Positions 35,241-49,800 of a DNA stretch of 64,000 bases are shown one piece after another. Under the pieces are notes generated by a model. That model was not told the DNA's origin. It did not search any database and saw only the letters and a program-made list of their open reading frames with translations. Position 1 is the stretch's first letter, and the number at the start of each line of letters is the position of its first letter. Both the position numbers and the translations under genes were made by a program. Source of the stretch: an uncultured Poribacteria bacterium (GTDB lineage Bacteria > Poribacteria > WGA-4E > WGA-3G); NCBI GenBank assembly GCA_951813565.1, contig OX638351.1, forward strand, positions 3,392,001 to 3,456,000, written 5' to 3'.

Positions 35241-35269
35241 TTGACAATAAATTCTAAATTTGGTACACT
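35241..35269 (+). promoter_or_regulatory. sigma70 promoter of the large operon
   Basis: TTGACA-17 bp-TACACT with TG extension, 36 bp before ATG 35305. Confidence 0.75.
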
Positions 35270-35304
35270 AACAAGAAGCGAAACATAGGAATCGGGGAAA
35301 TTAC

Positions 35305-38300
35305 ATGAGAATTAAATATTATATCGTAATAAATTTACTTGTCTTTCTATGCTGTGTTTCGTTCGGTTATGCAGCAGAAGGCAAAAAAACGTTAGGGTTG
35401 TCGGAAGCTGCAATCCAAATACGAGATCAACTTTCTATCCGTAACATTAGAAAAGACCTTGCACGCTTATCAAGTCTTGAAAGCCGCGTTACAGGTTATC
35501 CGCAAGCAGCAAATGGAAGTAAATATATTTTTGACCGTTTCGTTGAAATGGGATTGAAGAATGTTGAAAGTCGTGAATTTACTGTCACAGTTCCTATTGA
35601 TTATGGTAATAGTGCTATTGACATCCTTTCTGCTGATGGTACGGTGCAACACACGTTCCCACTCAAACCGTTGTGGCCGAACCTTGTCCGAACATCCCTT
35701 CTTGCCGATGGTGTCAAACATACTGTTGAAGCAGGAGAAACCCTCGAAAAAATCGCAGAAAACTACGCTGTCCCGCTAACAACTATTGCAGAAAACCCAC
35801 ACAACCAATATTTACCTACACCTGTTGTGGAGGGGAACACGGTTTTCATACCAACTGGCGGTCTTACCGGGCCCTTATTTTACGGAGACGATGCCCAACT
35901 TGCAGATTTCAACGGAAGTAAAGTCGGCGGCTTTTGGTACAGGCTCCAAGAAGGTGATACACTGGCTTCACTAGCGAGACGTTATCGCGTTACGAAAGCG
36001 AGTATAACCGATGATGTTCTCAATGGACATCTGCAGAAAGCTTCCGATGGCATTGATAACAATGAAGATGGTACTGTGGATGAATATGGCGAAATTCCGC
36101 TGTTATCAGAGATTCTTGGATGGGCGACAGATGGCATTGACAACGATGCTGATGGTTGGACAGACGAAATTCCCGGCGATGCCACAGATGGTGTTGATAA
36201 TAACAAAGACGGCCGGATTGACGAGACAGGCGAATTCATCGCCGCAAGCGAATCCGATATCTTTATCCCCAAAGGCGCGATCGTTCTTGCCGAGTTTAAT
36301 TCGGGTACCCGATGGATCAACGCTGCCATGCTTGGTGCCTCCGCTGTTATTTTTATCGAACCAGAAACAACAATCCGAGGCGAAGCAGAAAACAAATTCC
36401 TCACTGTACCAGCCAACATTCCCCGATTTTGGATTTCTAATACAGATGCTGTTCAATTAAAAGATTTTCTTGCCACAGGTGAAGAGGTCAATGTTCGCTT
36501 GCGCGGTAAAATGAAATGGGAACGACGCGTCGGTCAAAACATTCGTGGCTTTTTAGAAGGTGGCGATCCTGTCCTACGCGATGAACTAGTCGTCGTTACC
36601 GCATATTACGATTCTATGTCAGTCGTACCGGCAATTGCCCCTGGTGCTGACCCAACTTGTGGGATTGCTGTCCTAATGGAGCTTGCACGTCTGTTCGGAC
36701 AACCGCAATACCGCCCTGGTCGTTCAGTACTATTTGTTGCTGTTGACGCGCATTTCCAAGGTTTAGCTGGCATGCGCGCATTTATGGAAGGTATTGGACA
36801 AGATATTGTCGGGTCAGCAACTGATTCCCCTGGAACCCCTACTTTGCAAGGGTTAAGAAGGGGTTTGTCAAATGATATTATCGAGTTTGAAGAATTAGGA
36901 CGCAAACTATTACTTTCCATTGATCGGAGTATTTTGGTTGACTTGGACGCGGATTTTTACCACGGCGTGCACGGGATAAAAGAAGACCTTGAATCGCTCT
37001 CCACAACGTTGACAGGACTCTCTACAACCCGTTCTCAAATTGATTGGTTACACAGAGCGCAACGAGATTTCTCAGAACGCCAGAAAAAACAGGTGGATCG
37101 CAACCGAAAACGCGAAAAACAGGGATTCACAGAGGAAGAAAAATCAAGACTCGAAGCGAATCTCGTTCGGTTTGAAAAAGAAGCATTGCAAACGACACAC
37201 TTCCTTCGCGAGATTGTTAACCGACTGGGACAGATTCGGACATCCGCCTTGAAAACGAGTAAGGATGCTCAACGAGAACTCATTGAAACTATCGCATTGC
37301 CTATTGCACGATTAGACACATGGGCAGTGGATAGGCTGATGCGCGAACTTGAATCAGGCGAGATAGATGACCGATACGACACGCATCCAAACGCATCATA
37401 CCTGTTACCGATGAAGGATGGAACCGATTATGAAGTGCCAACACCTGACGATCTACCACCAGAATTATTATCCGAAATTGAACAATTGAACAAGACTCTT
37501 GCCAATTGGGAGATGAGTGATCAGCGTAAATTTGCTTTGATGTGGACACCTGACAAAATACTTGACCGCCACTTAGATTTGCCGACTCTCAGAAAAGCGA
37601 GAGATGCACGAAAGACCCTTGCAAACACAACTGAATCTAAGGAAGATGCCATACCACGAGAGCGAGTACTTCTGGAAAAAATAAAGGAAAATCTCAAGGA
37701 CACCGCTACCATTGAAAATCAAATTAAAGAAGCTATTACGAAATTGAGCAGTGATCGTGAGCACGATCTTCCACCTGAAGTATTAACGCAATATCTAACT
37801 GAAGCATCACAAGAACGGATTAATAGAATTGATGATCAACTCCAGCAACGTTTGACCGAAGCAACTTCAGCATCTGTGGTAGGTGAAGCTGGAGATGGTT
37901 CATCTGAAAATATTCTAATTGAGGATTTGGCACGCGATAAGCAAGGCATTTTTGAAATTGCACTGCGGAATGCCCGTTTAGAACGGACGCGTATCCAGTA
38001 TCTCCTTGATTCCCATGAAACCCTCACACGTGAGTTTCTTGATGAGGAGTTGCTAATTCTGAAAAGTTATCTTTCAGGTGAGGAGGTTGCACAAGCAAAA
38101 GAGGCACGCAAACATATTGCCGCCTATCTGGTTGAAGCCGAAATCCTACAAGCAGTCAAACAGAACGCAGCTTCAGATGTGATCGCTCTTGAAAATCTAA
38201 TCAAGCAGCTCCCATCGCTAACAAGGGATATAGATGCACAAACGAAGGTGCTTCTTCGCGATAATATGCTCACGCTAAGGAATGCGCGATTCCGAAACAT

Positions 38301-48382: not shown

Positions 48383-48847
48383 ATGCTTAACAAAGTTCTA
48401 TATACCCTTAAACTAAAAAAACGACCTGATGTAGATAGAGGCAAAGTCCTCAAAGCATTTCCGCTACGCAATCAGTTGATAACGTGGGAATTAGACGAAA
48501 AAGGTGAAGCCTCGCTCATCATTCCGCAGAAAGATAAATTCTGGGTTAGACTTACAAGTAAACTTTTTATGCTCCCCAATAAACGGGTTGTTGTGCTGGA
48601 TAGCATCGGTACATACGTATGGGAAATGTGTGATGGGAAGCATACTATTTCACAGATTATCAAGGCACTCCAGAAAAAACATCAACTGACCCGAAAAGAA
48701 GCCGAAACTTCACTTTTTACCTTTGTCCAACAGCTCGGAAAACGAAATTTTATCCAATTTGCTATTCCGAGTGAAGAAAAACCGAATGAGGCAGCAGCAC
48801 AAAAACCCGCGCAACAGAAGCGTTTCGGATTTTTGGCAAAGCGATAA
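48383..48847 (+). CDS. PqqD family (RiPP recognition element-like) protein
   Basis: LDSIGTYVWEMCDGKHTISQII...FVQQLGKRNFI. Confidence 0.85.
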   Translation: MLNKVLYTLKLKKRPDVDRGKVLKAFPLRNQLITWELDEKGEASLIIPQKDKFWVRLTSKLFMLPNKRVVVLDSIGTYVWEMCDGKHTISQIIKALQKKHQLTRKEAETSLFTFVQQLGKRNFIQFAIPSEEKPNEAAAQKPAQQKRFGFLAKR

Positions 48848-48993
48848 ACGATCTATTTATAACCTATTTATAACTTGTTTAACAAGTTCAGGATTTTTTA
48901 GTCAAGAAATCGCGACCAAGAGGTCGCTCCTACAGCGGAGACGCGATAGCCGATAACTGACTGCCGATAGCCAATAAAAAGGAGAAAAAAGAT

Positions 48994-49800
48994 ATGCAAG
49001 CAGAAATAGAGGGTGTACAACCAAATCTCGCTGAAACCCCAGAACGATTCCAGCGCCTTATTCCTAAAGAGAATACTGTTAGAGTCAGAAACCTCATAAA
49101 ACGTTATGAGATGGGAACAACGACTGTGGATGCGCTACGCGGTGTCAATTTCCAAATTCAACGCGGTGAATACATCTCTATTATGGGACCTTCTGGTTCT
49201 GGCAAATCTACGCTTTTTAATATGATTGGTGGATTAGACAAACCTACCGAAGGCAGAGTCTATATTGACGAAGTAGATATTGCACAGCTTGACGCTTACG
49301 AGTTGGCGTGGCTGCGTTGTCGGAAAATCGGTTATATTTTCCAATCGTTCAATCTAATTCCTGTTATGACAGCACTTGAGAATGTCTCGCTCCCCATGAT
49401 TTTTGCTGGTATGAGTGCCGATGAAAGCAGAGAAAAAGGCGTAGACCTGCTTTCTCTTGTTGGGTTGGGCGACCGCGTTCAACATAAACCGCTTGAACTC
49501 TCTGGTGGACAGCAGCAACGTGTCGCAATTGCCCGTTCCCTTGCTAACGACCCCGCTATTGTGTTAGCAGATGAACCGACAGGTAACTTAGATACCAAAA
49601 CAGGTCTTGAAATCATAGATTTGCTCCGCCGCCTCAATGATGAAAACGGCGTAACCATTATTACTGCAACACACGACCATAAGATGCTTGATGTCTCTGA
49701 CAGGATTTTCCATATGGTAGACGGCAAAGTTGACAAAATTGAGGCGCGCGATGAAATTGACCTTCACGTCGGAAAATTGGACGGTCAGGAAGTCGGATAA
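48994..49800 (+). CDS. ABC transporter ATP-binding protein (LolD/MacB type)
   Basis: GPSGSGKST, FQSFNL, LSGGQQQRVAIAR, LADEPTGNLD. Confidence 0.95.
   Translation: MQAEIEGVQPNLAETPERFQRLIPKENTVRVRNLIKRYEMGTTTVDALRGVNFQIQRGEYISIMGPSGSGKSTLFNMIGGLDKPTEGRVYIDEVDIAQLDAYELAWLRCRKIGYIFQSFNLIPVMTALENVSLPMIFAGMSADESREKGVDLLSLVGLGDRVQHKPLELSGGQQQRVAIARSLANDPAIVLADEPTGNLDTKTGLEIIDLLRRLNDENGVTIITATHDHKMLDVSDRIFHMVDGKVDKIEARDEIDLHVGKLDGQEVG

Follow-up and report, generated by a model that had tools for sequence, protein, structure and literature searches.

A giant FtsX-type subunit linked to OPT-fold membrane proteins: a candidate shared-motor ABC importer in Poribacteria, other bacteria and archaea

The locus and its giant subunit

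The window analysed here is a stretch of 64,000 nucleotides from an uncultured Poribacteria bacterium (assembly GCA_951813565.1, contig OX638351.1, positions 3,392,001 to 3,456,000, forward strand), and the subject is a locus of six genes on its plus strand that brings a type VII ATP-binding cassette (ABC) system together with a membrane protein of the OPT fold. The first gene encodes a giant subunit of 2427 amino acids (aa; window positions 35305-42588), described here through Pfam, hydropathy, 90 homologues and an AlphaFold2 (AF2) model. It is followed by a 65-aa protein with two transmembrane (TM) helices, found in Poribacteria only (42618-42815); by OPT1, a single-copy 662-aa membrane protein of the OPT/YSL fold and the constant partner of the giant (42904-44892); by a soluble 315-aa protein of no family (44922-45869); by a 154-aa protein of the PqqD/RRE fold (48383-48847; PqqD E 1e-11); and by a 268-aa LolD-type ABC ATPase (48994-49800). 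An insert of rpn and tnpB sequence separates the fourth gene from the fifth. The original prediction, made from the DNA letters, took this set for an envelope machine that binds, processes and translocates a peptide or glycopeptide while tethered to the cell wall. The six co-oriented genes and the insert were found as it described them (coordinates, Pfam matches and element ends were confirmed), and folds and linkage bear out its core, a conserved uncharacterized envelope system that joins a type VII (MacB/FtsX) ABC part with an OPT-fold protein.

Because gap-free contigs from two other runs cover positions 35197-42875, and with them the whole 7.3-kb open reading frame (ORF) of the giant, this frame is not an assembly artefact. 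All named close relatives of the locus are Candidatus Poribacteria. The prediction had offered co-occurrence in other genomes as its check, and the genes do co-occur. Across 80 Poribacteria loci the same order is kept (65-aa gene 80, OPT1 80, 315-aa gene 79, giant 78, PqqD 77, ATPase 74-75), and the giant adjoins the OPT1 gene in 78/80. Outside Poribacteria, OPT1 was found in Armatimonadota, Latescibacterota, Gemmatimonadota, Planctomycetota, Desulfobacterales, Omnitrophota, Hydrogenedentota, a firmicute and archaea, with a giant no more than 10 kb away in 66/80 and 40/78 loci; many of the loci without a nearby giant are short contigs or hold extra OPT1 paralogues. One such locus (L130) belongs to the complete genome of a cultivable carrier, Abditibacteriota bacterium IAD-21. 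In one sponge metatranscriptome, contigs of relatives lie over the giant and OPT1 at about 85-93% identity, which indicates presence only.

The giant begins with a signal peptide, a PA domain and a split M28-fold pseudo-peptidase that carries lineage-specific inserts, namely two LysM domains, Asp-rich repeats and long helical segments. After the M28 part come a transthyretin-like and a second beta-sandwich, a helix bundle, three extra TM helices and a MacB/FtsX permease, and the C-terminus is a cytoplasmic helix-grip/KA1-like domain. Pfam recognizes LysM, PA, M28, MacB_PCD and FtsX. The 90 homologues measure 1450-1900 aa, and by comparison the window giant has about 900 residues of lineage inserts, the LysM stretch among them. 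An AF2 model of residues 1330-2410 (predicted local distance difference test, pLDDT, 83.9) contains the two beta-sandwiches, the helix bundle, the three extra conserved TM helices, the MacB-like permease and the cytoplasmic domain. The permease matches YtrF (Z 14.2) and MacB (Z 13.6) in fold, with four TM helices, a long TM1 and an outer domain between TM1 and TM2, and the match of the cytoplasmic domain is middling (Z 8-9, about 8.8). Four Asp-rich repeats of the type DG.DN..DG..DE lie beside the LysM domains (residues ~245-310, window 36040-36240). Similar repeats occur in the inserts of the OPT1 homologues P0021, P0023 and P0038, and calcium binding by them would be a guess.

The active site of the M28 part was then compared across the 90 homologues, at positions that we take to be the canonical ones (H, D, E, D/E and H, plus the catalytic Glu). 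The first His is Tyr in 64/90 and His in 9/90; the bridging Asp is Glu in 71/90 and Asp in 12/90; the catalytic Glu has become His in 87/90, the zinc Glu Phe in 61/90 and the last His Asp in 79/90, while an Asp is retained in 85/90. By these counts, the giant does not have the site of an active two-zinc M28 peptidase. From its residues, the outer domain is best read as a pseudo-peptidase that conserves a new pocket (H483, D436, D1043, D1288), at which new chemistry would be possible. It resembles nicalin, nicastrin and the transferrin receptor in combining PA with an M28 fold whose zinc ligands are lost, and differs from such pseudo-peptidases in being prokaryotic, in its fusion to an ABC permease and in the other residues that it conserves. 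Matches to nicalin (E 0.011) and, in an archaeal homologue, to a nicastrin model (E 0.006) are weak.

These results bear on the proposal that a machine tethered to the cell wall binds and processes a peptide or glycopeptide and exports it. The PqqD/RRE, M28, LysM and OPT folds that suggested it are all present, MacB-type systems are peptide exporters, and the conserved pocket could be a new active site. However, most of the 90 homologues have other residues in place of the canonical M28 ligands and base, so that the claim of processing is not upheld. The claim of tethering finds no support either, since the LysM insert is absent from most homologues and archaea have the system. PqqD, which was placed at the centre together with a peptide, is found outside Poribacteria in 29/80 and 3/78 loci and in none of the archaeal loci read; most carriers lack both it and LysM. 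No precursor or maturase for a ribosomally synthesized and post-translationally modified peptide (RiPP) or for pyrroloquinoline quinone (radical SAM, YcaO, lasso cyclase) was found in the operon or among recurrent neighbour families, which agrees with the earlier statement that this is not a standard RiPP cluster and takes another support from peptide export. In addition, the dozens of paralogues of DUF6785, an OPT-fold family described below, would be unexpected for a single exported product. Peptide processing and export is therefore distinctly unlikely.

OPT-fold partners and the motor outside the window

The AF2 model of OPT1 (pLDDT 89.7) matches barley YS1 alone, with TM-scores of 0.63/0.68 and a Z of 21.0 against 5.9 for the next structure. 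The likeness to OPT/YSL carriers (YS1, PDB 7WSR/7WST) extends over the whole chain, at an identity of only 13-15%. Window OPT1 has no Pfam match, PF03169 is matched by 29 of 69 OPT1 homologues, and a sequence search of the PDB with the OPT1 profile gave no match. OPT1 relatives number 818 at 50% clustering; a scan with P0140 gave no loci. Positions 476 and 480, which we take from a sequence motif and not from a structural alignment to be the equivalents of the proton-coupling D490 and D494 in TM9 of YS1, are not acidic. Several OPT1 homologues (P0004, P0005, P0009, P0010, P0016, P0021, P0023) reach 810-1080 aa through large soluble inserts. These share one outer loop, near residue 550, and are beta-propeller-like, WD40-like or Asp-rich repeats, possibly serving as substrate catchers. 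YS1 is described as a homodimer that works as an elevator carrier coupled to protons (PMC9691689). One archaeal OPT gene is described as a stand-alone secondary peptide carrier (PMC2678158).

Two more families recur near OPT1 outside Poribacteria, a short 4-TM FtsX protein and DUF6785/6784. In an hhalign comparison, DUF6785 proves to be a full-length homologue of OPT1 (572 columns, probability 99.55%, E 1.9e-23). The source genome has 17 scattered DUF6785 genes of 27-49% mutual identity, with no giant adjoining. Among 553 genomes of three phyla in which the system is patchy, 79 have both OPT1 and DUF6785/6784, 7 have one of the two and 467 have neither. Of the 151 genomes of the G001 phylum, 26 have both, 1 has OPT1 only and 124 have neither; in the archaeal G004 phylum (201 genomes) the corresponding figures are 40, 2 and 155, with 4 genomes having DUF6784 only; and in the G007 phylum (201 genomes) the identical 13 genomes carry both, mostly side by side. 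Triads of DUF6785, giant and OPT1, in permuted order, occur in bacteria as well as in archaea. A giant-DUF6785 fusion of 2118 aa is found in G003, and its junction is read through in 5/41 genomes of the class of G003, down to 46% identity. A second apparent fusion, of OPT1 with DUF6785 (1324 aa, locus L127), was rejected as an ORF-calling artefact. Taken together, these results indicate that DUF6785 belongs to the giant/OPT1 machine.

One possibility is that the ABC part, like nicalin or nicastrin, serves solely to assemble OPT-fold membrane proteins or to control their quality, and that DUF6785 proteins are its clients, afterwards working as free secondary carriers. The degenerate M28 fold, with its weak nicalin and nicastrin matches, would suit such a role, and one machine with many clients would also yield the co-occurrence and a single-copy motor. 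A permanent giant-DUF6785 fusion, and 1:1:1 triads that recur with a separate giant in each, would be more natural in a stable working complex than with a chaperone, and we regard the assembly machine as unlikely. Remodelling or sensing of the cell envelope by an FtsEX-like mechanotransducer, with the OPT-fold proteins as sensors, may likewise be considered on account of the FtsX fold, the hydrolase-like outer domain and, in this lineage, LysM. It is highly improbable, as the system occurs in archaea of the G004 phylum (42/201) and patchily across bacterial phyla, and division or wall genes are not recurrent beside it.

The window ATPase is of LolD type, with Walker A, signature, Walker B and H-switch all intact, and is about 69% identical to ATPases that stand beside the short FtsX gene in two archaea. 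In the source genome the short FtsX gene lies elsewhere (C1:242907-243581), upstream of a second ATPase with 62% identity to that of the window, and in L252 and L254 two ATPases flank the cassette. The prediction missed what stands outside the window, namely the short FtsX subunit, this further ATPase and the DUF6785 family. No single operon seen is more complete than L254, where giant and OPT1 stand together with PqqD, the 315-aa gene and two ATPases. The short FtsX subunit encoded there carries a large outer insert and is 499 aa long (L254:3096-4592).

The numbers of these genes differ by tier. Short FtsX is present once per genome in 41/41 Poribacteria and once each in G002, G003, G005, G009 and G323 (E below 1e-58); two weaker matches in those genomes are longer, ordinary FtsX frames. 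Giants number 1 in G002, 7 in G003, 1 in G005, 3 in G006 and 2 in G216, and in G323 six triads stand against one short FtsX-ATPase pair on a separate contig. DUF6785 matches number 19 in G002, 78 in G003, 18 in G005, 21 in G006 and 1 in G007. There is thus a hierarchy of one short FtsX, 1-7 giants and up to 78 DUF6785 matches per genome, from which it follows that some genomes have one dedicated cassette, whereas in others a single motor would serve several giants and many DUF6785 proteins. Locus L154 is an example of a one-to-one cassette. As a separate observation, three archaeal genomes (G176, G184, G192; loci L257-L259) have a second class of FtsX proteins, 1030-1120 aa long and weakly giant-like, together with 5-7 DUF6784 matches and no OPT1 match, which may represent a divergent form of the system.

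Proposed mechanism, cargo and relation to known systems

The reading that we prefer, at about even odds (a probability near 0.5), is that a type VII ABC motor is common to swappable OPT-fold carriers that import solutes, with a leaning to carbohydrates, and is shared much as in group II energy-coupling factor (ECF) transporters. The motor module would consist of the short 4-TM FtsX subunit and one or two LolD-type ATPases, and the short FtsX and the FtsX part of the giant would form a LolC/LolE-like heterodimeric permease over two ATPases. The giant may hold OPT1 as its constant OPT-fold partner, plus one exchangeable DUF6785/6784 partner that would set the substrate. ATP binding would move the type VII stalks, the three extra conserved helices of the giant could then drive or gate an inward elevator stroke of the OPT-fold pair, and the pseudo-peptidase domain would serve as a lid or binding cap, capping or feeding that pair. 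PqqD and the 315-aa protein may be cytoplasmic adaptors in some lineages. When two TM segments of the giant were modelled in complex with OPT1, the scores were 0.17 and 0.27 (mark 0.32); with the controls not folded, they weigh neither way.

Clues to the cargo were sought in 83 genes near triads or DUF6785 genes of five genomes (from 91 picked, after removal of 8 that were short or repeated), with 89 controls from the same genomes. Pfam families of carbohydrate type were found in 15/83 neighbours and 4/89 controls (p 0.006); with glycolysis included the controls rise to 6/89 (p 0.03). These neighbours are GH130, GH57, GHL10, GH3, a pectate lyase, TrmB (two), AnmK, ROK, DegT (three), and xylose-isomerase-like, enolase-like and Gfo/Idh/MocA proteins. 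Glycosidases and lyases make up 5/83 against 0/89, and peptidases 3/83. The cargo appears diverse and leans to carbohydrate uptake, no further than that because the category was defined afterwards.

Several points weigh against import by a shared motor. The characterized members of the type VII ABC group are exporters or work at the outer face, and none of them is known to import. Contact among the giant, short FtsX, OPT1 and DUF6785 is proposed from genomes rather than from direct evidence. The co-occurrence counts were taken among kin, include the three centre genomes and come from incomplete genomes. Four archaeal genomes have DUF6784 and no OPT1 match. In two of them, G192 and G311, no giant was found either, while G184 has a giant cut at a contig end and G176 a C-terminal giant fragment; G238 was counted as having both families on weak matches. 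The DUF6785 matches include some fragments and are not copy numbers. For the cargo, the carbohydrate category was set after viewing the list, the loci were hand-picked, most neighbours have no family, and the neighbours of the 17 DUF6785 genes in the source genome were read by eye only. Finally, YS1 is described as a proton symporter that needs no ATPase (PMC9691689).

The permease itself may point to extraction instead. In a LolCDE-like extractor, the OPT-fold pair would flip or present a lipid-linked or hydrophobic molecule, which the FtsX heterodimer would lift to the outer domain. A heterodimeric permease with a LolD-like ATPase, LolC and MacB as the best sequence matches, and the helix-grip-like cytoplasmic domain are consistent with it. 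Yet the short FtsX subunit is almost without an outer domain, and the neighbours are catabolic enzymes and sugar regulators, not genes of lipid or glycan synthesis, so that an extractor is very unlikely.

The proposed shared-motor importer has the MacB/FtsX permease fold and LolD-type ATPase of the type VII ABC systems (MacB, LolCDE, FtsEX, YtrEF, HrtBA, YbbAP), and its permease is likely heterodimeric, as in LolC/LolE. Unlike them, the giant has a 1300-1600-aa pseudo-peptidase outer part, three extra TM helices and a C-terminal cytoplasmic domain, the other subunit almost lacks an outer domain, and OPT-fold partners are obligate. NCBIfam models for MacAB-TolC, LolCDE and FtsEX all scored far under their curated cut-offs, and no MacA, TolC, LolA or EnvC gene was found among the recurrent neighbour families, which sets the system apart from MacAB-TolC, LolCDE and FtsEX. 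OPT1 differs from OPT/YSL carriers in that an ABC motor and a further OPT-fold family are constantly linked with it. In the usual terms, ECF transporters are of group I or group II. The likeness to group II is one of logic only, an ATP module common to many scattered specificity subunits, and with the dedicated one-to-one cassettes of other genomes the genomic pattern matches groups I and II together, as these are described (PMC7755397, PMC4820897). Unlike ECF transporters, the present system has no EcfT or S-component fold. Its motor is of type VII, its permease FtsX and its carriers 14-TM OPT-fold proteins, and an additional tier, the giant with OPT1, stands between motor and carrier.

No description of the system was found in the literature searched, the coverage of which excludes most subscription papers and all supplements. 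No named system has this composition, though each part has a known fold and the coupling is one that we infer. Tentatively, and with rather less than even confidence, it might be a new class of primary importer, of an age that covers both bacteria and archaea. In such an importer a type VII ABC motor would have captured a pair of OPT-fold secondary carriers and would be common to up to dozens of exchangeable DUF6785 subunits, and Poribacteria, Latescibacterota, Armatimonadota and Bathyarchaeia-like archaea would take up nutrients mainly by this so far unseen route. If so, ABC mechanotransmission and the elevator carrier, principles held separate, would be joined in one machine, and the shared-motor design known from ECF would have a second independent case. 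DUF6785/6784, a family matched up to 78 times in a genome among abundant uncultured degraders, would gain a role, and loss of one short gene should disable many uptake routes at once.

Accessory genes, the insert and the neighbourhood

The LysM domains and the PqqD, 315-aa and 65-aa genes are lineage extras. The profile of the 65-aa gene matches 80/80 Poribacteria loci and 0/158 others, and a small hydrophobic ORF between giant and OPT1 gene is found in 2/106 loci outside Poribacteria. The 315-aa gene occurs there in 31/80 and 4/78 loci. For its protein no Pfam family common to 35 homologues and no solved relative was found; an internal repeat (E 0.001) suggests that it probably consists of two repeats, and PsbP/DcrB-like leads from the Atlas are weak (0.83-0.84, under 0.9). 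One locus (L146) has PqqD and the short FtsX fused into a single protein, possibly through a sequence error.

The rpn (YhgA-like) gene (45930-48338, plus strand) is interrupted by a tnpB-only IS200/IS605 element (46042-47403, plus strand; tnpB 46202-47311), and both are outside the system. The element was inserted after TTAG, ends in TGAC and has hairpins at each terminus; a spike in read depth over it indicates many copies in the host population. Among the 80 related Poribacteria loci, tnpB is matched in 2 and rpn in 9. Insertions of 1-5 kb between operon genes are common in related loci, and short multi-copy repeats or palindromes resembling repetitive extragenic palindromes or miniature inverted-repeat transposable elements lie between genes at 34380-35200, 42846-42876, 48910-48935 and ~51000-51300.

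A promoter-like site precedes the giant on the plus strand (35241-35269; TTGACA, 17 nt, TG-TACACT), matching 10 of 12 consensus positions plus TG, by consensus only. Such sites in the region are at chance level, 33 against 31.8 in shuffles. A gene for a DgaE/SelA-like pyridoxal phosphate enzyme (49809-50927, plus strand), which is not core, starts 9 bases downstream of the ATPase and is present in 65/80 Poribacteria loci and 0/80 others. It is likely co-transcribed with the operon in Poribacteria, so the transcript may exceed six genes. Of the single promoter and six-gene unit originally proposed, the placing of the site stands, and the system extends beyond the six genes.

Divergent from the operon lies a pair of an XRE-type helix-turn-helix (HTH) regulator and ImmA/IrrE (Peptidase_M78) (32998-34219, minus strand). 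The HTH gene recurs upstream of the operon in other Poribacteria loci and is a candidate regulator. Farther off, three overlapping Cys/His-rich ORFs of secreted appearance and no Pfam family (55043-56936, minus strand) are probably frameshifted pieces, and at 7934-13554 phosphodiesterase and sulfatase genes lie between two oppositely oriented DDE transposase genes, in an arrangement like that of a composite transposon.

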